Of a stretch of 64,000 nt of DNA, positions 1-58,854 are shown one piece after another (position 1 is the stretch's first letter; every line of letters starts with the position of its first letter). The notes beneath the pieces were generated by a model, which did no database searches, was not told the origin of the DNA, and was given only the letters and a program-made list of their open reading frames with translations. Origin of the DNA: Candidatus Portnoybacteria bacterium (GTDB lineage: Bacteria > Patescibacteriota > Minisyncoccia > Portnoybacterales > GWB1-42-6); assembly GCA_028688325.1 (NCBI GenBank), contig JAQTYI010000001.1, positions 168,820 to 232,819 of the forward strand, read 5' to 3'. A program made the position numbers and the translations under genes.

Positions 1-3000
1 GTGGAAGTGCCGAGTTTGAAAACATTATCCAAAGACGGATTGATGTCTCCGGCAAAAACCGCCGTGCCGCCATTTAAGATGCTCAAAAAAGTCGAGGTGG
101 CCGAAAGCGCGTCGGAAGAAGTGCCGATGTAAAAATTACCGCCTTGAGAGCTCAAAAACCAATGCTTGTCGTCGGCACCGGCCGAGTAGTCCGAAAGAAC
201 AAGCGAGGGACGCGTGCCGGAAATTTGCAATTTCCAATTGGGAGTGCTCGTGCCAATCCCCACATTCCCGTTGGCCGAAACCGTCAAAGTTGAAGTGGCC
301 TGCCAAGCCGAGTCCTGATAGGTCAAGGTCTGGCCTTGGGTGCCGACGGGCAAGGTGTCCACTCCTATTGTGAATAAAGTTGAGGTGCTCACCCATTCGG
401 TGGCCGAGCCGGTGGATTTGAGAATGTAGCCGTTGGCGCCGGCCGAAGACAAGCTGTCGTAGAGGCCGCCGGTCAGGGCGAAGTTGCCCGAGACCGAGAA
501 CTTCTGGTAAGGCGAGGAGGTGGCAACGCCGATGTTGCCGGTGTTGTTTATCGTCAGATAAGTTGAAGTGGCATTAAGCGCATCGGTGGAGGTGCCTATG
601 AAAAGATTGCCACCCATGGAAGAAAACAGCCAGTGCTTGTCGTTAATTCCGGCGGACATATCGGATAAAGCAAAAAATGTTTTGGTGGAAGAAGCGACCT
701 GAAAATTCCAGGCCGGAGTCGTTGTGCCAATCCCGATCGCTCCGGAAACATCAATTCTCATCCGCTCGGAGCCGCCGGTGAAAAACTTTAATTGGTCGTT
801 GTCCGCGCCGGCCGAATCTTCAGCCGTGATTTTTGTGTCCTGGTCAACATCAATCACTCCGCCCAGAGATCCCCAGGAGGAAGCGCCGTAGCCCTCAAAT
901 TGCTGGGTCTGTGAATTATAGCGAATAATGCCGCTGGTCAAAGAACCGGGCCGCTGGGCGGTGGTGCCCACGGGAATGACAAGGCCGTCTGTGGCGTCAA
1001 TATGCAAAGCGGTCTTGGGGGTGGTCGTGCCAACACCCAGATTTCCGCCGATAAGCGTTAAGTTTCCCCCCGACACCGCCAAGCCGGCTTTGGCCGAGAG
1101 CAGGCCAGAAAAAGAGCCGCCGGTGGCGGCAATGGAACCGGCGAAGGTGGAATCGGTGATGGTGGCGCCGGAGATAGCAACGCCGCTCAACTGATCAATT
1201 TTTTGCGACGACGACCAAGAATAAAAATTATTGGTGGTGTAAGAATTGCTCTGGGAGACGGCGGAACTTTGGCTGCTGCTGACCAGAGCCAAAATTTTTG
1301 TCTCCAGCGAAGCCATGTCGCTCGCCTTGGCATAGTCGCCGGGCGGCAAAACTTGCGTAATTTTTTCTATGCGCTGGACATACTGGATCGTTTGGCCATC
1401 CGGGCTGCCGACGATAATCGGCGGAAAACTCGGCTGCAACGCTTGCAATTTTTGCAAAGCGTTAATTTCGTCGTTCAAAGAAATGCTGAACTGCAATTCG
1501 TTCATTGTCACTTTTAGCTTATTGACTTCCCGGCGCATATCGTCGATGGCGATAAAATATTCTTTGTCGCCCGGCGACAAAGAGGGCATTGGCGGCGCAA
1601 CGGCGATGTGCCTGTAAAACAACGGGTCTATTTCCCGCGCCAATTGTCCGTAGTGGGTTAAATTATAAAAAACAAGAATGGCTTGGCGGCCCGCGCTGGT
1701 CGCGCTGTCGCCGGCGAATGCCAGGCCTTTGTTGATAATGCCGCCGAGATAATCCATCGCGTCCACCAAAACTTCGCCGGCGGCTTGCGGCCAAGAAACA
1801 ACCGGCTTCACCCCGTTCCAAACCGCCAGGCCGGTGTTGTTTATCGCGTCCCCGGATTTCTGGCTGATAACTAAATATTTGTCGTATGCCAGCGACGGCC
1901 ATTCCGTTATGCCGCCAAAAAAATTCCTGGCGGCCGAAGCTATTTTCAAGCTGGCGCGCGAAAAAATTTCTCCCAGATTATCTTTTGCCTGCTCGTTCTT
2001 TCTGTCCAAATTTAAATATGCGTCTTTCACGAAGGCCGGCCAGGCGGCGGCTCTGATTTCGATGTCGGCGATTTTATTTTGCGCGCCCTGGCCGGCCGAT
2101 GCGGTAAAGCCGGAAATGCTCCGTCCGGCTTCCTGAGCAAATTCAACTGCGGCCAAAGGCGCGTTCAAAATGTCGTTCAACAATAAATCCTGATTTTCAA
2201 CCGAACTGATGGAAACGGTCAATCGGCCAAACCGATGAACTGATGAATTGATGAACTGATGAATTGACTCGCCTGTTTGCTCCACCTGCCATGCTAATTC
2301 TTCTCCCGCGCCGGCCAAAGAATCGATTGCGCTCGCGCCGCCATCAACTAAAATCTCCGCTGAATTTTTTATTTCATTCTTAAATTTTTCTCCTTCTTTT
2401 TCATAAAGGCCCGCTTCGTTCTGTTCCTCCCTTTCGTAAAGGGAGGTTAGGAGGGATTTAGTATTCCATAAAACGCCGCTGATTTTTTCCGGTCCATCAA
2501 TAATTATCCTTCCCGCATTTTCCAGAACGGCTGCCGTCTTTTGAGTTATTGCTTCCTGCGCCTGCGGCAGAAACCAGGCGCCCGCCATCAGCAAAACCGT
2601 CAGCATTGCCAGCCGCAACGGCCTTAATTCCTCGCGGACCAGATGCGGCGCCACGCGCGCAATTTTCAACGCTTCTTCAAGCGCCTTGCATCTTAAATAA
2701 AATTTTATACAGGCCTCGCGCGATGCACCGGCGATTTTTTCAAAACCGGCGCCCAGCGCGGCCAGCGGCCAAAGCAGCGCCGCCAAGACCGCGAAGAAAA
2801 CTTTTCCACCCCCCTCCTTTAAATAAAGGAGGGGGGTGGAGGATTTAATTTCCTCCCTCCCCTGCAAAGGGTTCGCCTCGCTCTCGCGCAAGCGAGACGA
2901 GGAGGGTGGGGTGAGATTTAATTCTTGAACTTCCGCCGCTTCAATCTTTTTTTCACTGCCGCGTTTCTGCTCTTTGAAGTTTTGCACCCTCGCCAAATAT

Positions 3001-3356
3001 TCGTCCACCCAATCATTGGTGGTCATCCAGTTGCGGCCGATTTTTTTGGCTCGAAGTTTGCCTTGGCGCACGCGCAAGCTCAAATACTCCTGTGAATATT
3101 TAGCGCGCCTTGACGCTTCCTGCAAAGAAATGAGGCCGCCTTTCTTTTCTTTTTTGTTTTTTGCAGAAAACTGCGATTGGACCTTCGCCGAATATTCGTC
3201 CAGCCATTCCCGGGTGGTCATCCAATCCCGTCCGATCTTTTTGGCTTTTAATTTTCCCCTCCTGGCGCGCAAACTCAAATACTCCTGCGAATAAGGAGTT
3301 AACTCGCTGGCTTCCGCCAAAGAAAGGTAATTATTTTTTTGATCCGCTTGTTCCAT
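1..3356 (-). CDS. Giant partial ORF (more than 1118 aa) that continues past the window start. It has two tandem excisionase/MerR-like HTH domains at the N-terminus, hydrophobic segments, and a long extracellular-looking region with tail-fibre-like GIGTTTP/GNVGIGT repeats.
   Basis: The minus-strand frame was checked codon by codon and is open from position 3431 down to 1. The ATG at 3356..3354 gives MEQADQKNNYLSLAEASELTPYSQEYLSLRARRGKLKAKKIGRDWMTTREWLDEY; this HTH unit is duplicated about 70 aa later. Hydrophobic stretches follow (VFFAVLAALLWPLAALGAGF and LAMLTVLLMAGAWFLP). Downstream there are Ser/Thr/Gly-rich repeats such as GNLGVGTTTPKTALHIDATDGL, GAIGIGTTTPAWNFQVASS and GNVGIGTSTPNWKLQISG. 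The six-frame track missed this ORF because it runs off the window edge. Confidence 0.6.
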   Translation of the reverse strand, partial: MEQADQKNNYLSLAEASELTPYSQEYLSLRARRGKLKAKKIGRDWMTTREWLDEYSAKVQSQFSAKNKKEKKGGLISLQEASRRAKYSQEYLSLRVRQGKLRAKKIGRNWMTTNDWVDEYLARVQNFKEQKRGSEKKIEAAEVQELNLTPPSSSRLRESEANPLQGREEIKSSTPLLYLKEGGGKVFFAVLAALLWPLAALGAGFEKIAGASREACIKFYLRCKALEEALKIARVAPHLVREELRPLRLAMLTVLLMAGAWFLPQAQEAITQKTAAVLENAGRIIIDGPEKISGVLWNTKSLLTSLYEREEQNEAGLYEKEGEKFKNEIKNSAEILVDGGASAIDSLAGAGEELAWQVEQTGESIHQFINSSVHRFGRLTVSISSVENQDLLLNDILNAPLAAVEFAQEAGRSISGFTASAGQGAQNKIADIEIRAAAWPAFVKDAYLNLDRKNEQAKDNLGEIFSRASLKIASAARNFFGGITEWPSLAYDKYLVISQKSGDAINNTGLAVWNGVKPVVSWPQAAGEVLVDAMDYLGGIINKGLAFAGDSATSAGRQAILVFYNLTHYGQLAREIDPLFYRHIAVAPPMPSLSPGDKEYFIAIDDMRREVNKLKVTMNELQFSISLNDEINALQKLQALQPSFPPIIVGSPDGQTIQYVQRIEKITQVLPPGDYAKASDMASLETKILALVSSSQSSAVSQSNSYTTNNFYSWSSSQKIDQLSGVAISGATITDSTFAGSIAATGGSFSGLLSAKAGLAVSGGNLTLIGGNLGVGTTTPKTALHIDATDGLVIPVGTTAQRPGSLTSGIIRYNSQTQQFEGYGASSWGSLGGVIDVDQDTKITAEDSAGADNDQLKFFTGGSERMRIDVSGAIGIGTTTPAWNFQVASSTKTFFALSDMSAGINDKHWLFSSMGGNLFIGTSTDALNATSTYLTINNTGNIGVATSSPYQKFSVSGNFALTGGLYDSLSSAGANGYILKSTGSATEWVSTSTLFTIGVDTLPVGTQGQTLTYQDSAWQATSTLTVSANGNVGIGTSTPNWKLQISGTRPSLVLSDYSAGADDKHWFLSSQGGNFYIGTSSDALSATSTFLSILNGGTAVFAGDINPSLDNVFKLGTS

Positions 3357-3755: not shown

Positions 3756-4018
3756 AAAAATGCTTTTCTTGATAAACCGATATGCCGTTTTTTGGCTTAA
3801 AATAAGCATTTTTCGCTGTATCGGTTTTTTTATGATTTTTTATCCGATACGCCGGGCTTGACAAGATTTTAAAAAAACCTAAAATGAAAGCAGGACAATA
3901 AGTCCGGATTTCTAACAGACGGCCCCGCTTCGGCGGGGTTTTCTGTTTCACCGCGCCGAAGCTCGCAGCAATAACGGAGATGCGGAGGCGGGTTTTTCTA
4001 TTTCCGGTAAAAGTATCC

Positions 4019-4070
4019 GATGTCCGACATCCCGGATATTAAGGATCCCAAACCCCGGATGTCGGACATC
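4019..4070. repeat. GATGTCCGACATC-type hairpin repeat.
   Basis: GATGTCCGACATC-CCGGATATTAAGGATCCCAAACCCCG-GATGTCGGACATC. Confidence 0.7.
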
Positions 4071-4205
4071 ATAGAATGATACCGCTTACTTAAGATGACG
4101 CACCTCGCCGCCCTACAAATCTATCGCTTAACTATTTTCTATTGATTATAAAAACCCGCCTAATGGCGGGTTTTTGATTCTCAATTTATCGCTCTATTCT
4201 CTTTT

Positions 4206-4697: not shown

Positions 4698-4867
4698 ATT
4701 AAATTATTCCCGCGGTTTTACCGCTCTTACCCCGCAAACCACCGTCTCGTATAACTTTGGACGCCCATTTTTTGACATTGAGTCATTGGGCATTCATTGG
4801 AAATTAGCCATTTGCCATTGGGATTTAAAAGCAAGAACGCGGGTTATTTTTATGATACTATTATACT

Positions 4868-7217: not shown

Positions 7218-8156
7218 ATGCCAATGAATTTGAGCGCGCCCATTCGGGTGTATTGGGATGTGCGCGCCGATATTAATACTGAAAAACCGGCAAGCGGCGC
7301 CGAAAAAACCGTTATCGCCATTTTGGAAAGATTAACGCGGGAAAAAATATTCTATTTATCGATTTCGGGATGGGAGAATATATCCTATGAGGCGTTGCGC
7401 GAAATGCTGCCCGGCTTGGATAAAAACGGCATCTCGGTCTCGTTGATGCTTTCGGGCGGAAAAACACTCCCCGAAAACGAATTACTTTTACACGCAAGTT
7501 ATGCAAAAGAATTCGTTTTTGAAATAGATTCTGAAAAAGATTTGACGAAGTTATCTTCGCTTCAGAAAATATTAAAAAAAACACCGGCAAGAATAAGCGT
7601 TTCCATATATCCGCATGAAGGAAATTACGGCCGAATCCCTTCGATCATCGAATATTACGCAAAAAATGGAGTCCAAAATTTCATTATTCCGGCTCCCGGG
7701 ATCGCCGACAAGTCCAAAATCTCCGCACGCGACCATTCCCTCAGGGAGAAAATAGCACGCGCTATTAACAGCTCCCCTTCCTCGCGGAACGGTACCCTGA
7801 ATTTTATCGTCCACGATCCCTTTTTGTGGAAGCTGCTCGACCCAAGGTGTTTTGAAAATAAAAAGATGACTTTTGAAGGATGCCAAGCGGCTGATTCGAT
7901 AGCTTATATTGATTTTAAGGGCGATGTCTTTCCCTGCTTGTTGCTGCCAATAAGATTGGGCAATCTGCTCCAAGACAGTTTAAAGGAAATATGGTCGTCG
8001 AAAGAAAGGAAAGCTGTCAGAAAAAAGATAGAAGACATTCCTGAAAATTGTAAAAAATGTTCCCGGCTCTCGGAATGCAACGGCGGGTGCAGGGGCTTAT
8101 CATTATTGATCAACAATAATATCTGTTCGAAAGACCCAACCTGTCCCGTTTGTTGA
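7218..8156 (+). CDS. SPASM-domain protein related to radical SAM enzymes but lacking the CxxxCxxC SAM-cluster motif (degenerate rSAM paralog).
   Basis: The C-terminus carries CQAADSIAYIDFKGDVFPC...CKKCSRLSECNGGCRG...CSKDPTCPVC, a 7-Cys SPASM-like motif. The N-terminal barrel region (VYWDVRADINTEK, LSISGWEN) has no Cys triad. Confidence 0.6.
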   Translation: MPMNLSAPIRVYWDVRADINTEKPASGAEKTVIAILERLTREKIFYLSISGWENISYEALREMLPGLDKNGISVSLMLSGGKTLPENELLLHASYAKEFVFEIDSEKDLTKLSSLQKILKKTPARISVSIYPHEGNYGRIPSIIEYYAKNGVQNFIIPAPGIADKSKISARDHSLREKIARAINSSPSSRNGTLNFIVHDPFLWKLLDPRCFENKKMTFEGCQAADSIAYIDFKGDVFPCLLLPIRLGNLLQDSLKEIWSSKERKAVRKKIEDIPENCKKCSRLSECNGGCRGLSLLINNNICSKDPTCPVC

Positions 8157-8192
8157 GCGCCCATAAATCATAATTGAAACAATAAATAAAAT

Positions 8193-23661: not shown

Positions 23662-24438
23662 TTATGCGAAATAAAGCTGTATCATCTGCACTATCCCCCA
23701 GGCGCCGAGCATCACGGCCATGCCGATGATTCCCCAAATCATATGCCTTTTGCCTTCTTCCAATTTTGCTGATTCTCCGCTGGCGCTATAGCGCACATAC
23801 TCTGCCACTCCCCAGAAAAAATAGACCGTCACCAGAATAAAAAGCAAACCAATAATCTGATTCAATGTGTCTTTGATTTTTGCCACCAGCGCACTGCCTT
23901 GGCCAGAGCCGCCGCCCAAAATATCCGTGATATAAGTGACTATCGCCTGGCTGGCCATGATAACCGCGATGCCCGCGATGGTCCAAATAAAATTTTTCTT
24001 GGCCGCGGTTAATTTGTTTTCATTTCCTTGCGCCGTGGCAAATTGGAAACCCGCCCAGATAAGCATGAACACCGCAAAAATTGTCGCCAAAGGAATCAGA
24101 AAATTGATGATCTTAATAATGAGTTCACTGACGCTTTTGGCGCCGATAAAATTGGGCAAACTGACGCTATTCGGGCCGGGAGCATAGTTGCCGGCATTTA
24201 AGGGCTCGGCTGAGGGCAAAGCCGCATTTCCCGCTCCGGCGCCATAGCTATTTAAAAAACAATTGCCCTGGCCCGTATCAGGATCCGTTATGCAACTTTC
24301 CCCGCTTGGACAAGAAGAATCACCATATCCCCCGCAACTTTGTCCGCTGCTGGTCGCCGCCAATCCCGCTTCCGCCAAAACAAAAAACCCGCCGATCATT
24401 AAAAAAGCGATAAAAAATGTTTTATATGATTTTTGCAT
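23662..24438 (-). CDS. VirB2/TrbC-like pilin-family protein with an internal domain duplication and a Cys/Gly-rich N-terminal region (paralog 2).
   Basis: The C-terminal 100 aa is about 60% identical to paralog 1. An internal repeat reads IINFLIPLATIFAVFMLIWAGFQF. GGAGG precedes the start. Confidence 0.5.
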   Translation of the reverse strand: MQKSYKTFFIAFLMIGGFFVLAEAGLAATSSGQSCGGYGDSSCPSGESCITDPDTGQGNCFLNSYGAGAGNAALPSAEPLNAGNYAPGPNSVSLPNFIGAKSVSELIIKIINFLIPLATIFAVFMLIWAGFQFATAQGNENKLTAAKKNFIWTIAGIAVIMASQAIVTYITDILGGGSGQGSALVAKIKDTLNQIIGLLFILVTVYFFWGVAEYVRYSASGESAKLEEGKRHMIWGIIGMAVMLGAWGIVQMIQLYFA

Positions 24439-24522
24439 TTATTTCTCCTCCCTTTTTAAAGGGAGGCAGGGAGGGATTTTAATCCCTCTTAATCCTCCTT
24501 TGCACAGGAGGAAAATTATAAT

Positions 24523-31846: not shown

Positions 31847-32010
31847 CTCATTCTCCTTTCTCTCTGTTTTTCCAGTCCGTTCCTTATTAGTGCTCTAAAA
31901 TAGAGCTTTTTAAGTTGCTACCCGTTAGCTTTTTCTGTTTTTTTATTTTAACATACCTGACCTATATTTGTCAATAGTTGAACTGGAATTCCCGAAATCC
32001 GCGCCTCTTG

Positions 32011-32080
32011 CCAGGAAGTAGAAATTCGGCCCTATACTGATTTTGTCGCCTACGGCGACAGCTGAATTTTCACTTCCTGG
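32011..32080 (+). promoter_or_regulatory. Conserved inverted-repeat element upstream of rpsA (copy 1 of 2).
   Basis: CCAGGAAGTAGAAATTCGGC ... GCTGAATTTTCACTTCCTGG with an inner hairpin GTCGCCTACGGCGAC. Homologous to 39448..39516 upstream of hup. Confidence 0.45.
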
Positions 32081-32328
32081 CTTGCCAAAAATTCTCTTTT
32101 ACCTTATACTAACCGAGTATTAAGCGCCGAAAAAACATTGCGAATAAGAAATAACAAGGTGATTTTCTCCTCCTCTTAATTTAAGAGGAGGCCGGGAGGA
32201 GTTATAATCTGCAATCTTTTAATTTATAACTCACCCTAACCCTCTCTTAACTTAAGAGAGGGAATAATTCCCTTTTAATCAAATTCGTATATTATAATAA
32301 TTAAAAAACGGCGTTATTATCGTTTTAA

Positions 32329-33516
32329 ATGACAGCTAAATCAAAAGTTAAAACAAAAGCAGCGGAGGAACCGAAAAAATCAGTTATGACCGGGCTTCTG
32401 GCCCAGTCCCCCAAAACCCCCAAGTTGGGCGAAATCGTTACCGGCAAAGTTTTAGAGGTCAGCCGGAGCACAGTTTTCATCGATCTGGGAGCGGCGGGCA
32501 CCGGCGTGCTGCTGGGCCGCGAAATAAAAGAAAACCGCAATTTAATCAAGTCCTTAAAGCCCGGCGACGAGATATCGGCCATGGTGCTTGAGGCAGAAAA
32601 TGAGAACGGCTTTGTTGAGCTTTCCTTGCAGGCGGCTCATCGGGAGCAGTCATGGGATGTGCTCAGAAAAATATCGGCTAGCCAAGAAATCGTCAAAGCC
32701 AGAGTCACCGCAGCCAATCGAGGCGGTTTGATGATAGAACTCAGCGGAGTGGCCGGGTTTTTGCCGGTTTCGCAATTATCCCACGAACATTATCCGAGAG
32801 TGGAAGACGGAGACAAAAACAAGATCCTGCAGGAATTGAACAAATTCATCAACAAAGAAATGGAAGTCCGCATCCTTGATGTCGACCCCAGCCAGCAAAA
32901 ATTGATAGTTTCCGAAAAAGCCGTTGGAGAAGAAAAAGTCCGCCAGGCGCTTTCGCAATACCAGATGGGCGAACTGGTGGAAGGAACGATTTCCGGCGTA
33001 GTGGACTTTGGCGCTTTCGTGCGCTTCCCTCTTAAAGGAACCGAGGCGCAGGCCAAACCGGAAATGATAGAAGGCCTCATCCATATTTCCGAAATTGATT
33101 GGCAGCTGATAGAAGATCCGCGCCAGCTTTTGCACGCGGGCCAGAAAGTTACCGCCAAAATAATCGGCATAGAAAAAGACCGGCTGTCGCTTTCTCTCAA
33201 GGCCCTGAAAAAAGACCCGTGGCAAAACATTGAAGGCAGATACGCCAAAGACCAGATCGTTAAAGGCGAAGTCACCAAGATAAACACCTTCGGCGCTTTT
33301 GTTCAATTGGATAAAGATATCCACGGACTCGTGCATGTTTCGGATTTCGGCTCTCCTGACATCATGAACAAGCAGCTCCAGAGCGGCCAAAAATACGACT
33401 TCAAGATCGTTTCTATCGAACCGGCCGTCCATAAAATGGCGTTGTCGCTGGTCAGGCCGGAAAGCGCGGCCAAAGCGGAATCGGCCGCGGAAACCGAAAC
33501 TCCAAAAACCGAATAA
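32329..33516 (+). CDS. rpsA: 30S ribosomal protein S1.
   Basis: Four S1 domains. Confidence 0.85.
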   Translation: MTAKSKVKTKAAEEPKKSVMTGLLAQSPKTPKLGEIVTGKVLEVSRSTVFIDLGAAGTGVLLGREIKENRNLIKSLKPGDEISAMVLEAENENGFVELSLQAAHREQSWDVLRKISASQEIVKARVTAANRGGLMIELSGVAGFLPVSQLSHEHYPRVEDGDKNKILQELNKFINKEMEVRILDVDPSQQKLIVSEKAVGEEKVRQALSQYQMGELVEGTISGVVDFGAFVRFPLKGTEAQAKPEMIEGLIHISEIDWQLIEDPRQLLHAGQKVTAKIIGIEKDRLSLSLKALKKDPWQNIEGRYAKDQIVKGEVTKINTFGAFVQLDKDIHGLVHVSDFGSPDIMNKQLQSGQKYDFKIVSIEPAVHKMALSLVRPESAAKAESAAETETPKTE

Positions 33517-35444: not shown

Positions 35445-35472
35445 TTAACTCAACTTTGACCCGCTATCTTTT

Positions 35473-35544
35473 GGGCGTGTAGCTCAATGGTAGAGCACGA
35501 AGCTTATACCTTCGCGGTTCTAGGTTCGAATCCTAGCGCGCCCA
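35473..35544 (+). tRNA. tRNA with anticodon TAT (Ile-UAU type), flanked by a perfect 15-bp leader/trailer inverted repeat.
   Basis: Acceptor stem GGGCGTG/CGCGCCC, anticodon stem-loop CGAAG-CTTATAC-CTTCG, T-loop TTCGAAT. The flanks are GACCCGCTATCTTTT and AAAAGATAGCGGGTC. Confidence 0.6.
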
Positions 35545-35774
35545 CCCCAAAAGATAGCGGGTCAAAGCATAGCGCTGGTTCTGGGCCCGCCCTGTTAGAA
35601 ATTATTGAATAGCTTATTTTCACGCTAAAATTTATTCTGGAAATAGCTTGTTTTATTAGATTAGAAATTACTTTATAATTTCTAACAGGGTGAAAATCAT
35701 AGCGCGCGCACCGCGTAAAACCCCGCCTTAGCGGGGTCACGCAGCGCAGCCCCGTAAAAAATTAACAAAAATTT

Positions 35775-36671: not shown

Positions 36672-36748
36672 GGGTCTATAGCTCAGTTGGCTAGAGCGCG
36701 TCGTTGACATCGACGAGGTCAGTGGTTCGAGTCCACTTAGACCCACCA
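36672..36748 (+). tRNA. tRNA-Val (anticodon GAC).
   Basis: Acceptor stem GGGTCTA/TAGACCC with an encoded CCA, anticodon stem-loop CGTCG-TTGACAT-CGACG. Confidence 0.8.
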
Positions 36749-36767
36749 AATGAAACTGCTTAAAATA

Positions 36768-37817
36768 ATGTCCGCCCAGCGGCTGGACAAATTTTTACAA
36801 GAAAAGTTTCCGCAATATTCCCGCGCCTTTATCAAGGAACAGATAAAGCTCGGGAATTTTTTGGTTTACCCCGAGCAGAGCCGAGGGGTTAATGGAGAAA
36901 AAGTTAAGCCCTCTTATATTTTGCGCCAAGGCGACCAAGTCGCCTTGGCGCCGGGATTTAATTTACCCGACGCCGCGCAAATTTTACCCAATCCCGCCAT
37001 CAAGTTGGATATCATTTTTGAAAATGACGATGTTATCGTCATCAATAAACCGGCGGGATTATCAGTCCATCCGCGGCAAGACAAAAACGGCTTGCCCCTG
37101 CTTCAGGAAATAAATACGGCACTCGTTAGCGGATTGCTGGCATATTATCCGGCGATTACGGATGCGGGAGATATATTAAATCCTCCCCGGTCCTCCCTAA
37201 AGGGAGGGAGTAAAATCAGTTCCCCTCCTTTAGGAGGGGTTAGGCCAAAGGTCCTGGAAGGAGGAGATTTTTATCCTGCTAATATCCGTCCCGGCATCGT
37301 GCACCGCCTGGACAAAGACACTTCCGGCGTGATGATAATCGCCAAAAACCAAGCAAGTTTTGACTGGCTCAAAAAACAATTCAAAGAACGGCAGACAACA
37401 AAAAAATATCTGGCACTGGTCCATGGCTTGCTGAAGATTAAAGAAGGAGAGATTAAAACGCTGCTACACCGCGCAGTCTCCGACCCGACCAAACAGAAAG
37501 TCTCAAAGAACGAAGGAAAGGAAGCAATAACAGGATACAAGGTCATTAAGGAATTTAAGGGCTATTCACTGATTGAAGCCAGCCCCAAAACCGGCCGTTT
37601 GCACCAGATACGCGTGCATCTGGCGCACCTGAGCCACCCCGTGGCCGGCGATGCCAAATACGGCGATAAACGCCTGCCTATTTTGCCTGGCTTAGACCAC
37701 CAGTTCCTGCATGCCCAAGAGCTGAAAATAACCCTTCCCGGCGGCTCAAAAAAGACATTTTTTGCGCCTCTGCCGGCCGATCTGCAAGCCACTTTAGACA
37801 CCCTTGCCGGGAAGTGA
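36768..37817 (+). CDS. rluD: RluA-family 23S rRNA pseudouridine synthase (RluD-like), carrying an in-frame palindromic-element insertion.
   Basis: S4 domain (MSAQRLDKFLQEKF), VINKPAGLSVHP, and RPGIVHRLDKDTSG. An approximately 33-aa insert NPPRSSLKGGSKISSPPLGGVRPKVLEGG lies before the HRLD motif. Confidence 0.85.
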   Translation: MSAQRLDKFLQEKFPQYSRAFIKEQIKLGNFLVYPEQSRGVNGEKVKPSYILRQGDQVALAPGFNLPDAAQILPNPAIKLDIIFENDDVIVINKPAGLSVHPRQDKNGLPLLQEINTALVSGLLAYYPAITDAGDILNPPRSSLKGGSKISSPPLGGVRPKVLEGGDFYPANIRPGIVHRLDKDTSGVMIIAKNQASFDWLKKQFKERQTTKKYLALVHGLLKIKEGEIKTLLHRAVSDPTKQKVSKNEGKEAITGYKVIKEFKGYSLIEASPKTGRLHQIRVHLAHLSHPVAGDAKYGDKRLPILPGLDHQFLHAQELKITLPGGSKKTFFAPLPADLQATLDTLAGK

Positions 37818-37932
37818 AAGTTTGGCTGCCGTCCGCGGCGGCAAATTATTGGGTGGCCAAACTTCTACTTCCCGGCTTGAAAGAATATAAATAATATGAT
37901 AATATCTATTCGTAATTAGAGGCAACCCAAAT

Positions 37933-39447: not shown

Positions 39448-39516
39448 CCAGGCAGTAGAAATTCGGCTGGCGCTTGCAGCGCCAAAATCCAAATAAGCCG
39501 AATTTTCACTGCCTGG
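39448..39516 (+). promoter_or_regulatory. Conserved inverted-repeat element upstream of hup (copy 2 of 2).
   Basis: CCAGGCAGTAGAAATTCGGC ... GCCGAATTTTCACTGCCTGG with an inner hairpin GGCGCTTGCAGCGCC. Confidence 0.45.
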
Positions 39517-40504: not shown

Positions 40505-40666
40505 CGCCCATACGAAAAATGACAATTTATTGTCATCCCGAACGAAGTGAGGGATCTCTGGCGAATGCCAGACCTGTTGCGCGGATCTCCGCCTAACGGC
40601 GGATCCCACGAGATCCCTCGCTACGCTCGGGACGACACTTCATGTCGACTTTATCATCGCGCGAGG
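40505..40666 (+). mobile_element. MITE-like repeat, family B, copy 1.
   Basis: About 160 bp, bounded by CCGCCCATACGAAAAAT ... TTTATCATCGCGCGAGG. The internal long hairpin is TCCCGAACGAAGTGAGGGATCTC / GAGATCCCTCGCTACGCTCGGGA. It is 90% identical to 61126..61286. The track ORF MRDLWRMPDLLRGSPP here is a translation of the repeat. Confidence 0.6.
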
Positions 40667-49185: not shown

Positions 49186-49204
49186 ATCATTTAAAAAAGT
49201 TTAT

Positions 49205-49337
49205 TCCGACATCCGATGTCCCAAATATTGGGCATTTTGCACCCAGGACATCGGATGTCGGAATATTGAATTTAATCTGTCGACATCCGACGACCTAAAA
49301 TTCAGAATTCTTTAATATTCGGGTTGTCGGATGTCGA
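49205..49337. repeat. Two tandem copies of the GATGTCCGACATC-type hairpin repeat.
   Basis: CCGACATCCGATGTCC-(24 nt)-GGACATCGGATGTCGG, followed by TCGACATCCGACGACC-(31 nt)-TTGTCGGATGTCGA. The first loop contains CAAATATTGGGCATT. Confidence 0.7.
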
Positions 49338-49343
49338 AAAGTT

Positions 49344-50033
49344 TTATTTGAAAAAATTTATTATTTTCTCTCCCTCCGCCAAATCCTCCTTGTGACCGTT
49401 GGGATGCCAGAAGTCCGCCTCCACTGCTTTAATTTTATACTTATCCGCCATTTGCGCCAAGGTCTGAGGCAAGCCGAACTCCTTGTCTGAAACCAGCACA
49501 AATGGATAGTCAAAAAAATCCTTGCTCATAAGATACGCGCCGATGTTCACTAGATTGCCGCCCTTCCTGTCTTTTAGAAATTTAAATTCCACCACTTGTT
49601 TTAGATTCCCTTCGCTGTCTTTTTCCACCACGCCAAAACGCGTGTTGTTTTCTATTTTTTTTACCAACAAAGCCAGATCGTGTCGCAAGAGCTTTTTAAG
49701 ATCTTTTTTATGATAAAGATCGTCGCCCATCAGCACCAGGAATCTGTCGGCCAGCATATCCTTGGCCAGGCAGATGGCACCGGCCGTGCCGTTAAAATCC
49801 GTCTGCTCGCAATAGCTAATCTTTCTGCCTTTATGCTCTCCGCCAAAATATTTACGGATCATATCGCCCTTGTAGCCCACGATAAAAATAATTTCCGAAA
49901 TTTCTTCCGGAAGGTTGTCTAAGGCATATTCGACTATGGGCCGGCCGCCGATTTTCAGCAGGGGCTTGGGGATTTCGTCAGTCAGCTCCCCCATCCTTGT
50001 GCCCCGCCCAGCGGCCAAAATTACTGCTTGCAT
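49344..50033 (-). CDS. Sugar-phosphate nucleotidyltransferase (NTP_transferase family).
   Basis: MQAVILAAGRGTRMG...PKPLL is present. The start was trimmed to avoid overlapping tRNA-Ala. Confidence 0.8.
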   Translation of the reverse strand: MQAVILAAGRGTRMGELTDEIPKPLLKIGGRPIVEYALDNLPEEISEIIFIVGYKGDMIRKYFGGEHKGRKISYCEQTDFNGTAGAICLAKDMLADRFLVLMGDDLYHKKDLKKLLRHDLALLVKKIENNTRFGVVEKDSEGNLKQVVEFKFLKDRKGGNLVNIGAYLMSKDFFDYPFVLVSDKEFGLPQTLAQMADKYKIKAVEADFWHPNGHKEDLAEGEKIINFFK

Positions 50034-56539: not shown

Positions 56540-57361
56540 TTATATTCCAAATAACTTTTTGGCATTAGCCGTCGTCGCTTCCGCCACTTCTTCCAAACTG
56601 ATGCCGCGCAATTCCGCTACCTTTTGCGCCACATATTTCACATAACTCGGTTCGTTTCTTTTACCACGGAACGGCTCCGGGGTCAAATACGGGCAGTCGG
56701 TTTCCAGCAAGAGCCGCTCCAGCGGCATTTCTTTGACCGCGCGGTCATAATCGCGCGCAAAAGTGATGATGCCGTTAAAGCCCAGGTAAAAACCCATATT
56801 CAAATACTGCTCCGCCTGGTTCCACCGACCGGAAAAACTATGAATAACTCCCCGCAGGGGCTTATTGCCGACCATCGTCCAGGTTTTTAAGATTTTCAGC
56901 AGATCATCGTGCGCTTCGCGGCAATGCAGCATCACGGGCTTTTGCAAGCACTCAGCCAAACCTAATTGTTCCAACAGAACTTCTTTTTGCAATTCTGGCT
57001 TAGCTATATTTCTATAATAATCCAAACCGATCTCTCCTATCGCCACGACCATATCCTGCTGCGCCAGATTCTTATAATGCTCGTAATCAAATTCCTCCGC
57101 TTCCATTTTAAAATTCACGGTTTCTTGGTCATCCACCTTCGTTTCAATTTCCTGCGCGCGCAAAGAGCCGGGGTGCAGGCCGACGGCCGCAAAAACCCCG
57201 CGGCCGTATTTTTGAGCGTATTCAACCGCTCGTTGGCTCGTCTTCCTTTCCGAACCGACATTTATCAGCCAAGTATTTTCTTTTAGCGCGCGCCTGACTA
57301 CCTCGTCGCCATCGTCTTTATAGGCGCTGAAATTTATATGGGCGTGAGTATCAATAAGCAC
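56540..57361 (-). CDS. tatD: TatD-family hydrolase.
   Basis: IDTHAHINF, and GLHP...EIGLDY on a TIM-barrel metal-dependent hydrolase fold. The start is a GTG. Confidence 0.85.
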   Translation of the reverse strand: MLIDTHAHINFSAYKDDGDEVVRRALKENTWLINVGSERKTSQRAVEYAQKYGRGVFAAVGLHPGSLRAQEIETKVDDQETVNFKMEAEEFDYEHYKNLAQQDMVVAIGEIGLDYYRNIAKPELQKEVLLEQLGLAECLQKPVMLHCREAHDDLLKILKTWTMVGNKPLRGVIHSFSGRWNQAEQYLNMGFYLGFNGIITFARDYDRAVKEMPLERLLLETDCPYLTPEPFRGKRNEPSYVKYVAQKVAELRGISLEEVAEATTANAKKLFGI

Positions 57362-57370
57362 TTAAATGGC

Positions 57371-57423
57371 GATGTCCGACATCCAAAGATTAAAACGCAT
57401 TAATATTCGGGATGTCGGACATC
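57371..57423. repeat. GATGTCCGACATC-type hairpin repeat.
   Basis: GATGTCCGACATC-(27 nt, containing AATATTCGG)-GATGTCGGACATC. Confidence 0.7.
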
Positions 57424-57435
57424 GTAAAATTGGTA

Positions 57436-58854
57436 TTATTTGATCCTCGGAAACAGCCCTTCCCTCTTCTGTATCTTTTCCGCCTTAGCCGCGGCCAAAA
57501 TTTTTCCGGCGGTCTCGGGCATAAACGGCGCTAAGGCCTCCCCTATCGCAATGATGGCGCCCAAAAGTTCGGCCAGGGTTTTTTGCGCTTCGCCCTTGTT
57601 TGTTTTTACTAATTCCCAAAGTTTCGTTTCGTCTATTTTTTTATTGGCCCAGTCGATTTTCGCGATTATTTTTTCCAGGGCCTGATAAAGCTTAAAATTT
57701 TCCATTTCCGCGGCAATATCTATTTTATCCTTTTTCGCTTTTATCTTGCCGTCAAAATTTTTTTCAATAATATTGAAAACCCGGCTTACTAAATTTCCCA
57801 GCCCATTAGCCAGATCCGCGTTGTATTTTTCCGTCAGTTTTTCCCAGGAAATATCGCCGTCGTGGCCAAAAGGCGTTGAAGCGGCCAAAAGGTATCGGCT
57901 GGCATCCGCACTAAATTTCGCGACCATTTCCTCAGGCCATATCACATTGCCCAGTGATTTTGACATTTTTTGCCCGTTTATCGTAAAAAATCCATGCACA
58001 AAAAATCTCTTGGGTAATTTAAATCCCTGATTCAGCGCCAATAGCAGTCCCGGCCAGATGGTGGAATGCACCCGAACAATGTCTTTGGCCATCAACTGGG
58101 CATCTGCGGGCCAAAATTTCAGCTCTTTTTCATTATCGCCATCCCAACCAAGTCCGGTCAGATAATTCAACAAGGCATCCACCCAAACATAGGTCGTGTG
58201 CTCCTTGTCAAAAGGCAAAGGAATCCCCCATTTGACATTCTTGCGGGAGATGGAAATATCATTTAACCCGCTGCGGATAAAATTTAAAACCTCGCTCTTG
58301 CGCTCTTTGGGCTCGATCAAGAGTTCATCGTTTGAAATCCTTTTGGCCAGCTCTCTGCCAAAAAATGACAGTTTAAAAAAATAGCTTTCCTCTTTCATCA
58401 ATTGCGGCTCAACCTGGTGCTCCGGGCATTTGCCGTCGATTAGATCATCAGCAATTTTATACTGCTCGCAACCCGTGCAATAAAGCCCTTCGTATGTTCC
58501 CTGATAAATAAAATCCCGCTCATACATCCTTTGCAAGGCACGCTTGATGGCCGCTTCGTGCGCAGCGTCCGTAGTGCGGATGAATTTATCATATTTAACA
58601 TTAAAAAGTTTCCAGGCATCCTGGAAATCCTGCGCTCGATTGTCGCAAAAGTCCTTCGGGGATTGACCCGCCTTTTCGGCCGCCTGCGCCACCTTGGCGC
58701 CATGCTCATCTGTGCCGGTCAGAAAGAAGACCTCCTCGCCTTGTGATTTGTGCCAGCGCGCCAAAATATCCGCCGCCACGCTGGTATAGGCATGGCCGAT
58801 ATGCGGCTTGTCGTTTACATAATAAATGGGAGTGGTGATATAAAATTTATTCAT
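57436..58854 (-). CDS. metG: Methionine--tRNA ligase (short form).
   Basis: HIGH (PHIGHAYT) and KMSKS motifs, and the anticodon-binding domain. Confidence 0.9.
   Translation of the reverse strand: MNKFYITTPIYYVNDKPHIGHAYTSVAADILARWHKSQGEEVFFLTGTDEHGAKVAQAAEKAGQSPKDFCDNRAQDFQDAWKLFNVKYDKFIRTTDAAHEAAIKRALQRMYERDFIYQGTYEGLYCTGCEQYKIADDLIDGKCPEHQVEPQLMKEESYFFKLSFFGRELAKRISNDELLIEPKERKSEVLNFIRSGLNDISISRKNVKWGIPLPFDKEHTTYVWVDALLNYLTGLGWDGDNEKELKFWPADAQLMAKDIVRVHSTIWPGLLLALNQGFKLPKRFFVHGFFTINGQKMSKSLGNVIWPEEMVAKFSADASRYLLAASTPFGHDGDISWEKLTEKYNADLANGLGNLVSRVFNIIEKNFDGKIKAKKDKIDIAAEMENFKLYQALEKIIAKIDWANKKIDETKLWELVKTNKGEAQKTLAELLGAIIAIGEALAPFMPETAGKILAAAKAEKIQKREGLFPRIK

Follow-up and report, generated by a model that had tools for sequence, protein, structure and literature searches.

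An in-frame insert in rluD of a Candidatus Portnoybacteria bacterium with the anatomy of intrastrand-triplex repeats

An intramolecular triplex requires a homopyrimidine/homopurine hairpin and a third block that forms a mirror repeat. For the intrastrand-triplex repeats BoxC, PIT, and TM, we know of no function or mode of spread that has been established in some 30 years. The colonization of housekeeping proteins in frame by palindromic repeats is chiefly known from Rickettsia. These two phenomena, which have so far been separate, are joined in an insert in the pseudouridine synthase gene rluD, located in a 64-kb stretch of DNA (the window, to which coordinates refer unless a contig is named) from Candidatus Portnoybacteria, a lineage of the Candidate Phyla Radiation (CPR)/Patescibacteria. 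The insert is very probably a composite triplex-type repeat that is present in multiple copies and that lies in frame in rluD, where it would be translated as a tolerated loop.

The architecture in question was described earlier as BoxC in E. coli, as PIT (potential intrastrand triplex; Hoyne/Maher 2000), and as TM or TM_ECO (Holder et al. 2015, PMC4666352). The TM_ECO pattern reads CCCTCNCCC N3-6 GGGNGAGGG N3 GGGNGAGGG; the second loop of TM elements is either TTA (type A) or CCG (type B), and inverted pairs always combine an A and a B unit (PMC4666352). The number of TM copies amounts to 3,610 in 262 proteobacterial genomes; the elements are without a linked transposase and, in E. coli MG1655, are "always located intergenically" (PMC4666352). 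Oligonucleotides of TM_ECO formed a stable triplex in vitro and stopped the polymerase in primer extension, and no promoter, terminator, or regulatory activity was found for PIT/TM elements (PMC4666352). Triplex motifs have also been associated with local genome instability in published work. As a new idea, the mirror-tail/triplex architecture was dropped, as it had been published in 2000 and 2015 (PMC4666352); the new aspect is the in-frame occurrence of this repeat class. Literature searches with sequence strings and keywords retrieved no work linking such repeats to CPR genomes or to coding regions. The Rickettsia palindromic elements (RPEs), as summarized from Ogata et al. (2000, 2002) in PMC10969869, are approximately 150 bp in length and encode conserved peptides.

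The product of the host gene carries an S4 domain and a PseudoU_synth_2 domain (7.9e-34) according to Pfam, and among solved structures, E. coli RluD (1v9f, 5e-37) comes closest to it. Over its whole sequence it has 100% identity with an RluA-family protein of Candidatus Portnoybacteria at NCBI, which places the window in a CPR/Patescibacteria genome. The insert adjoins the catalytic HRLD strand, of which the Asp188 codon is located at 37311, on its upstream side. The gene and the parts of the insert are the following.

36750-37817, plus strand: rluD, an intact gene encoding an RluA-family 23S rRNA pseudouridine synthase of 355 aa, in which both the S4 domain and the catalytic HRLD are present.

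37176-37274, plus strand: in-frame insert of 99 nt or 33 codons, aa 143-175 (LNPPRSSLKGGSKISSPPLGGVRPKVLEGGDFY).

37178-37207, minus strand: triplex-motif unit 1, with tail AAATCCTCCCC (37178-37188), linker GGT (37189-37191), and hairpin CCTCCCT-AA-AGGGAGG (37192-37207).

37208-37221, plus strand: spacer GAGTAAAATCAGTT of 14 nt between the units, with the same sequence in the copy on contig L212.

37222-37272, plus strand: triplex-motif unit 2, with hairpin CCCCTCCT-TT-AGGAGGGG (37222-37239), linker TTA (37240-37242), and mirror tail GG...GGAGATTTTT.

37245-37262, plus strand: secondary insertion of 18 nt, CCAAAGGTCCTGGAAGGA, which splits the tail of unit 2 and is missing in the copies of L001, L207, and L212.

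When the other copies in the window are taken into account, a repeat unit comprises a pyrimidine and a purine arm separated by an AT-rich loop, followed after a 3-nt linker by a purine tail with an ATTT end, and the rluD copy consists of two such units in inverted orientation with their tails outward, giving a composite of some 80-95 nt. Asn178 is another additional codon, and counting it, the site exceeds that of orthologs with an empty site by 34 aa. The tail of unit 2 is unbroken, TTA-GGGGAGATTTT, in the orthologous copies and in that of L212. Terminal inverted repeats are present (AAATCCTCCCC at 37178-37188 versus GGAGGAGATTT at about 37260-37271) and are predicted to form an outer stem; those of the L212 copy are cleaner than those of the window copy. 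The linker of unit 1, ACC (GTT in L212), falls outside the TTA/CCG rule, which is therefore not universal in this subfamily. The original prediction of two palindromes inside rluD was borne out, as they were found at 37192-37207 and 37222-37239, and so was the addition of about 33 aa just upstream of the catalytic HRLD (33 codons at aa 143-175, of which aa 144-172 are the peptide NPPRSSLKGGSKISSPPLGGVRPKVLEGG). The same holds for the shortness of the region in E. coli RluD, of which only 2 residues face aa 139-179 of the query in the 1v9f alignment. Of the proposed span of the element, 37178-37262, the start coincides with the outer tail (37178-37188); the end had to be moved, as the right tail runs to 37272.

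Judged by its sequence, the rluD insert is a pair of hairpin plus mirror-tail units of the intrastrand-triplex (BoxC/PIT/TM) type that belongs to a distinct sequence subfamily. A covariance model, R1, made from 82 units of many genomes and run on the window with filters off, found nine units at five loci in the 64 kb, while only three weak matches were obtained in 760 kb of unrelated metagenomic contigs. Unit 1 of rluD (37177-37208, minus strand) scored 22.7 bits (E 1e-5) and unit 2 (37222-37244) 12.4 bits, the latter match stopping at model position 26. The other members, and the open reading frame (ORF) in which some of them lie, are listed below.

3-3356, minus strand: giant ORF that runs off the start of the window and hosts two in-frame unit loci.

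2426-2460, plus strand: best-scoring unit, CCTCCCTTTCGTAAAGGGAGG-TTA-GGAGGGATTT, with 49.8 bits in R1, in frame in the giant minus-strand ORF.

2797-2847, no strand assigned: hairpin CCCCCCTCCTTTAAATAAAGGAGGGGGG with tails on both sides (R1 units 2797-2831 and 2812-2847), in frame in the giant ORF.

24447-24512, no strand assigned: intergenic pair of units, tail to tail (R1 units 24447-24480 and 24479-24512).

32169-32260, no strand assigned: intergenic inverted pair upstream of rpsA, with units 32169-32205 (plus, CCG linker, type B) and 32226-32260 (minus, TTA linker, type A).

Related palindromes had been noted before in these parts of the window, and by R1 those at 2426-2460, 2797-2847, 24447-24512, and 32169-32260 are indeed of the same family. 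The units 2426-2460, 24447-24480, 32169-32205, and 32226-32260 fit the three-block triplex pattern exactly (positions 2426-2456 read CCTCCCTTTCGTAAAGGGAGGTTAGGAGGGA), and weaker unit-like matches extend beyond the 2797-2847 hairpin up to 2920. In a homolog of the giant ORF, P0122, some 20 aa are missing precisely where the 2426 unit lies; this is the only clear gap, the homologs being too divergent around the 2797-2920 linker to call presence or absence there. Both the pattern CCTCCYTWWAGGRAGG and pure pyrimidine/purine hairpins occur in excess over chance: the former has five matches versus 0.37 expected, a number reached in no shuffle, and of the latter there are eight at five loci versus a mean of 1.07 (maximum 3) in Markov-1 simulated windows. 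Rfam at gathering thresholds reported only tRNAs in the window.

The tail was found to be the mirror of the adjacent arm in at least six of seven positions on 126 hairpin sides versus 50.9 +/- 6.0 in re-paired controls, a test in which the hairpins were unselected by the search pattern, while the column tables use mirror-preselected units and are descriptive only. The relation is that of a mirror, not of a direct repeat, as seen in AGAGGGG followed by GGGGAGA, AGGGAGG followed by GGAGGGA, and GAGGAGG followed by GGAGGAG. When 185,579 species genomes were scanned for the unit tail AAGGGAGGNNNGGAGGGATTT, at least 120 matches were obtained, versus about 17 expected by chance according to our own estimate, and nearly all of those listed also had the upstream pyrimidine arm, which was outside the query. 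Among the matches listed are Nitrospirota, Desulfobacterota/Syntrophaceae, isolates of Acinetobacter, Cellvibrio, Burkholderiales, and CPR lineages; on these matches, the unit family spans phyla and is not restricted to a lineage. At other CPR loci, most units form pairs between genes. On L001, of which the proteins are approximately 66-74% identical to those of the window, near-identical units occur at differing loci (282-325, similar to window 24447-24480, and 4748-4790, similar to window 2426-2460). TM_ECO proper was set aside as the identity of the window elements in view of the weak scores of R1, 6.6 and 5.7 bits only, on the TM_ECO pair between hrpB and mrcB of E. coli; the element is therefore filed under the architectural class and not under TM_ECO.

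Several further observations were made on the units. The unit tail pattern was also present in 13 stretches of predicted viral contigs (IMG/VR, L213-L225), mostly with a matching pyrimidine arm, and phages may thus carry such units. In Nitrospirota, the unit pair is the core of an element of about 150 bp that resembles a miniature inverted-repeat transposable element (MITE) and has extra outer inverted repeats (e.g., L025 3100-3245, minus strand). Copies of it were seen in L013, L025, L033, L039, L043, L050, L051, and L098, all eight with TA at both ends, and they fall into the subfamilies CTAAGGAGTTCATAAGTA... and TTAAGAGTCTCATAATTG.... These TA-flanked elements hint at a mode of mobility that is missing from the published work, and their flanks are compatible with TA duplication of the IS630/Tc1 type. 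The complement of the left arm of the intergenic pair at 24447-24512 (24445-24452) contains GGAGG, 8 nt 5' of the ATG of the minus-strand ORF 23662-24438, where it could act as a Shine-Dalgarno sequence. A TATAAT-like hexamer often comes right after the unit tail, both in the window (32201-32207, 24513-24520) and in Nitrospirota copies (GGGATTTTATAAT). The units may thus donate promoter or ribosome-binding-site signals.

That the repeat is dispersed follows from its presence in another gene. An exhaustive HMMER search with aa 140-180 of RluD retrieved one protein, P0172, a 163-aa GIY-YIG/UvrC-N-like product, the DNA of which, on contig L212, carries AAATCCTCCCCAACCCTCCCTAAAGGGAGGGAGTAAAATCAGTTCCCCTCCTTTAGGAGGGGTTAGGGGAGATTTTTA. 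A peptide search with the insert as a 43-aa query had no word triples in common with any candidate. As this stretch is identical to window 37178-37244 at 64 of 67 positions, the same composite resides in an unrelated gene. All three mismatches fall within the 3-nt linker; the spacers do not differ, and beyond the 18-nt piece of the window copy the two sequences match again.

The insert is conserved at the level of nucleotides. Between the window and L207, identical residues had identical codons in 21 of 21 cases in the insert and in 128 of 225 in the flanks (Fisher p = 2e-5); for L001, the numbers were 18 of 19 and 130 of 223 (Fisher p = 1e-3). Third-position identity was 0.85-0.89 in the insert versus 0.56-0.57 in the flanks, and amino-acid identity was not above that of the flanks. 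The nucleotide sequence of the insert could thus be constrained by selection on nucleic-acid structure, or its conservation could reflect recent re-insertion or gene conversion. Selection for an effect of the element would make it a domesticated one, kept in rluD either because the triplex or hairpin slows replication or transcription or because mRNA hairpins with GGAGG and anti-Shine-Dalgarno-like CCUCC pause ribosomes, with the consequence that RluD expression or folding is tuned. The hairpins and synonymous sites have been kept while the flanks are at 56-57% third-position identity, and the insert region of the RNA is predicted to fold into a three-way structure of -43.7 kcal/mol (z = -2.4), both of which would suit such a role, as would the complement of an arm at the expected Shine-Dalgarno place in one intergenic copy and the stable triplex and polymerase stop obtained with TM_ECO in vitro (PMC4666352). 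However, the tail of the window copy is broken, 31 of 50 orthologs are without any insert and others have unrelated elements at the spot, and activity as a promoter, terminator, or regulator was not detected for PIT/TM in published studies. The conservation could equally well stem from recent spread or gene conversion. Domestication is considered unlikely, albeit less so than the other alternatives discussed below.

The distribution of the insert was examined in an alignment of 50 close orthologs (60-77% identity), in which the residues of the catalytic motif are all invariant. The gene order rpsA-ftsH-...-rluD-rplS was kept at every locus retrieved, which supports the orthology of the rluD set. 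In 31 of the 50, the site is empty and reads VGD-xPx-[IL]RPGIVHR, while the window has 34 additional residues; inserts of several kinds are present at the same site in 18 other orthologs. At the DNA level, the empty site in L005 (GGC GAT ATT / CCA GCT ATT CGC) corresponds to the filled site in the window (GAT ATA [TTA AAT CCT CCC ... GAT TTT TAT] CCT GCT AAT ATC CGT). The insert was predicted to be lineage-specific and to span the palindromes, and both points are supported, the former by the syntenic orthologs with an empty site and by E. coli RluD, the latter by these DNA junctions. It is not an artifact of assembly, since independently assembled contigs share the orthologous insert (L001 and L002, which come from two samples, as well as L207). 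L127, the only close relative in the metagenome scan with an RluD alignment (the others mostly having about 35% identity), has an empty site.

At the same site, L208 carries TCCTCTCCTTTAAAAGGAGAGGA ... TCTCCCCCTTTTGAAGGGGGAGA-AAA-AGAGGGGGTTAT, in which the sequence is another one and the hairpins and mirror tail are kept. L209 and L210 carry an unrelated palindromic family there ("PSTSSGQA"), and the rluD of L209 has a GC-rich TM pair at a third site, after DPTKQK. In a wider set of 120 orthologs, 82 had at least one insert of at least 6 aa, and these inserts cluster after aa 38 (n = 22), after aa 251 (n = 40), after aa 329 (n = 11), and at aa 141-177, where 17, 9, and 12 sequences have them in three adjacent blocks. 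The spot upstream of rpsA (window 32085-32330) is occupied by differing TM pairs in the window, L001, and L209, by another element in L210, and by none in L004; it is an intergenic insertion hot spot that mirrors the one in rluD.

An ordinary lineage-specific expansion of the RluD loop, either ancestral or derived from slippage, with the palindromes being incidental, would be in line with the general character of the site as an indel hot spot (19 of 50 orthologs with some insert, of several kinds), with the 82 of 120 orthologs that have an insert somewhere, and with the predicted disorder of the loop. It is largely refuted by the match of the DNA to the covariance model of a dispersed repeat (E 1e-5), the 64/67-identical copy in an unrelated gene, and the conservation of synonymous sites above that of the flanks, which is the reverse of what a free loop would lead one to expect. 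In addition, orthologs hold differing family members at the site with hairpin and mirror tail kept, as in L208, and no ortholog has the segment without palindromic DNA, which an ancestral segment could have; on this point, the interpretation as an element stands. Loop expansion is thus highly improbable.

In an AlphaFold2 model built on the ortholog alignment, RluD was predicted with confidence (mean predicted local distance difference test score [pLDDT] 84.9, predicted template-modeling score 0.76), and RluD structures can be superposed on the model (2ist, E 2e-28; 2.7-3.1 A for the catalytic modules). A pLDDT below 50 was obtained for residues 1-3 and for aa 145-177, the sole internal segment of this kind, which is without secondary structure and lies between the strand 140-142 and the catalytic strand that starts at 179. 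The low pLDDT of the insert is consistent with a tolerated loop. The copies inside rluD (81-114 nt) all have a length divisible by three and contain no stop codon, a count subject to survivorship bias as the copies retrieved are from intact ORFs only.

Translational bypassing elements are known from some mitochondria and from gene 60 of phage T4. A similar bypass of the rluD insert, or its removal at the RNA level, would leave it untranslated, and both the strong local RNA structure that is predicted and the conservation of nucleotides over peptide would be expected of such an element. Neither take-off and landing codon pairs nor an intron signature were seen, however, the rluD copies are all stop-free multiples of three in spite of their differing lengths, and the copies in the giant ORF are likewise in frame and without stop. 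Even with the frame argument weakened by the bias just mentioned, an untranslated insert is regarded as slightly more improbable still than loop expansion.

The preferred interpretation, a triplex-type composite that is translated as a tolerated loop, can be put in the following terms. One copy would have entered rluD of a Portnoybacteria lineage at a hot spot that encodes a loop, between the short strand aa 140-142 and the catalytic strand, and would have persisted because its length was divisible by three and it had no stop codon. In each hairpin, two of the three frames are open. Translation of the insert would then yield a surface loop, rich in Pro, Gly, and Ser and probably disordered, that is harmless and does not disrupt the enzyme. 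In general, genic copies would persist only as stop-free multiples of three in permissive loops, and in the compact CPR genome, with its little intergenic space, such a filter would leave visible in-frame survivors. The structure maintained would be that of the DNA and not of the RNA. The repeat might spread as a non-autonomous element, possibly with duplication of a TA target. TA is present on either side of the copies in the window and on L212, which as a sign of target-site duplication is suggestive only. Alternatively, it could spread by copy-choice or recombination once the polymerase has stalled at a triplex or hairpin; such a route would agree with the local genome instability that published work has associated with triplex motifs.

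A number of observations weigh against this interpretation or parts of it. Unit 1 of rluD fits the mirror in 5-6 of 7 positions and with a longer linker only, and the window copy is partly eroded. With the tail of unit 2 split by 18 nt and the mirror of unit 1 imperfect, triplex formation by this copy is doubtful. Only one copy of the full composite, that on L212, turned up outside the locus in the exhaustive HMMER search, and the composite pattern was not found in the scan of viral contigs. The high synonymous conservation could be due to recent gene conversion or re-insertion rather than selection. The distribution of the insert is patchy, and the neighbor-joining tree of the 50 orthologs, in which the window stands beside P0002 and P0007, carriers of another family at the site, and a clade of P0013, P0003, and P0005 that shares the element of the window is sister to an empty ortholog, does not separate one old insertion followed by losses or replacements from repeated insertion. 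The TA-flanked ends lie in AT-rich sequence and could be a matter of chance. No transposase, RAYT, or autonomous insertion sequence partner turned up, the ORFs of the window being unscreened for transposases. Finally, translation and surface exposure of the insert are predictions, and the low pLDDT is only consistent with a loop.

Seen more broadly, and put forward tentatively, as a possibility that falls somewhat short of an even chance, Portnoybacteria, and perhaps CPR bacteria widely, may be the second case, after Rickettsia, of selfish DNA in proteins, here in the form of small, TA-flanked, non-autonomous units of the triplex class, for which only locations between genes have been described until now. 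The loop hot spots of rluD, at least three sites, would have been hit repeatedly, also by at least two other palindromic families, and selection on DNA structure, continuing re-insertion, or gene conversion would preserve the nucleotide sequence of the units. If true, the BoxC/PIT/TM class would thereby gain a demonstrable way of moving and a part in the evolution of proteins. Handles on movement and constraint are offered by the units inside CPR genes, the near-identical copy elsewhere, and the synonymous conservation. For annotation, it is of importance that predicted CPR proteins contain repeat-derived loops, often with recurring motifs such as SPPLGGV, PSLKGG, and GEGWG. Such loops make the proteins longer, interfere with their alignment, and may pass for domains specific to a lineage.

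Other palindromic repeats are present in and around rluD, two of which touch the gene itself.

36867-36890, plus strand: second, unrelated palindromic in-frame insert of 24 nt, TACCCCGAGCAGAGCCGAGGGGTT, in the S4 domain of rluD, translated as YPEQSRGV.

37806-37876, plus strand: copy of a third family, a 72-nt palindromic repeat, which overlaps the stop codon of rluD (37815-37817).

Relatives of the insert at the S4 site are longer in other orthologs (rluD of L004 and L210), in which they comprise 16-48 aa, bear terminal inverted repeats, start with VYP or IYP, and end with SNGV or NRV; these ends are the translated terminal inverted repeats. An apparent full-length intergenic copy of the S4-site family, CCCCGTTAGAAATTATTG...CAATAATTTCTAACGGGG, was seen on L212 (983-1100). 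The 72-nt repeat, CTTGCCAGGAAGTAGAAATTCGGC ... GCCGAATTTTCACTTCCTGGCTTG with an inner hairpin, has three copies in the window (32010-32081, 37806-37876, and 39448-39516), and since the middle one overlaps the stop codon, the C-terminal end of RluD (..AGK*) is encoded by the repeat. A further palindromic family with GGATGTCGGACATCC-like cores and partly nested arms is located at 4005-4084, 49202-49348, and 57346-57448. A 28-nt inverted repeat, TGTCATCCCGAACGAAGTGAGGGATCTC / GAGATCCCTCGCTACGCTCGGGACGACA, with its arms 51 nt apart, is found at 40531-40637 and presumably resembles repeat elements whose translation gives rise to spurious ORFs in numerous bacterial genomes.

In the neighborhood of rluD, a tRNA-Val(GAC) ends at 36748, with the ATG of rluD at 36750 (window 36672-36750). 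At this place, directly 5' of the rluD start, orthologous loci have a terminator-like hairpin of the CCTC/GAGG type with a T run (L001 6239-6264, L004 9968-9989, L005 9965-9988). ARAGORN also identified a tRNA-Ile with anticodon TAT (UAU) at 35472-35547; such a tRNA is uncommon in bacteria, in which AUA is usually decoded by a lysidine-modified CAU tRNA. On L001, a gene for a large serine recombinase (Resolvase/Recombinase/Zn_ribbon_recom; 8061-9605) lies just 3' of rplS beside the rluD locus and is missing at the other syntenic rluD loci.

Of the known systems, the RPEs come closest in behavior. Like these, the rluD element is a palindromic repeat in frame in unrelated conserved genes of a reduced genome, leaves the ORF intact, and is predicted to be compatible with the fold of the host protein. 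The differences concern its length (some 80-95 nt versus about 150 bp), the phylum of the host, and the conservation of nucleotide sequence or structure beyond coding needs, while RPEs encode a conserved peptide; it is by size, host, and anatomy that the two are set apart here, and not by alignment to RPE consensus sequences, to which no relationship is expected. A true RPE or a homologue of it, acquired horizontally, would account for an in-frame palindromic repeat in unrelated housekeeping genes of a small-genome bacterium, but is the least probable of all alternatives in view of the CPR host, the shorter length, the conservation of nucleotides rather than peptide, and a homopyrimidine/homopurine hairpin with mirror tail of BoxC/PIT/TM that is outside the RPE description. 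Of the mobile, RPE-like in-frame element originally proposed, dispersal and landing in frame are thus retained and kinship with RPEs is given up on account of the BoxC/PIT/TM anatomy, the word mobile being derived from the dispersal only.

With REP (repetitive extragenic palindromic)/REPIN-RAYT systems, the units share that they are short and palindromic, occur singly or as inverted pairs (REPIN-like doublets), are mostly intergenic, and have many copies. REP families are usually species-specific, whereas the unit described here recurs across phyla. A GTAG-like 5' tetranucleotide was not found in the unit alignment A2, and no RAYT gene was seen in the DNA examined, which for this genome amounts to 64 kb. 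With MITEs and intragenic small repeats (MITEs of the IS630/Tc1 type, intragenic ERIC, and MITEs of Anabaena; PMC10969869), the element has in common that it is short, bears terminal inverted repeats (AAATCCTCCCC ... GGGGAGATTT), folds into a long hairpin, and is occasionally fused in frame with a host ORF. The copies examined also have TA at either end. Internal mirror symmetry of the triplex type, in contrast, is not a MITE feature.

In conclusion, the anatomy is that of BoxC/PIT/TM, with which the units share the succession of pyrimidine stem, short loop, purine stem, 3-nt second loop, and mirror purine stem. They also often occur as inverted pairs and have many copies per genome, a wide taxonomic spread, and no linked transposase, and at 32169-32260 a type B unit is joined by an inverted type A unit, exactly as described for TM pairs. 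They differ from TM_ECO in their stems, CCTCCCT/AGGGAGG or CCCCTCCT instead of CCCTCNCCC/GGGNGAGGG, in their AT-rich loops and ATTT ends, and in being located in frame inside rluD, the giant ORF, and the GIY-YIG gene of L212, whereas the E. coli copies are intergenic. They are further distinguished from the class by a host that is a CPR bacterium, by the outward tails of the rluD copy, and by the Nitrospirota units, which form the core of TA-flanked MITEs of about 150 bp.

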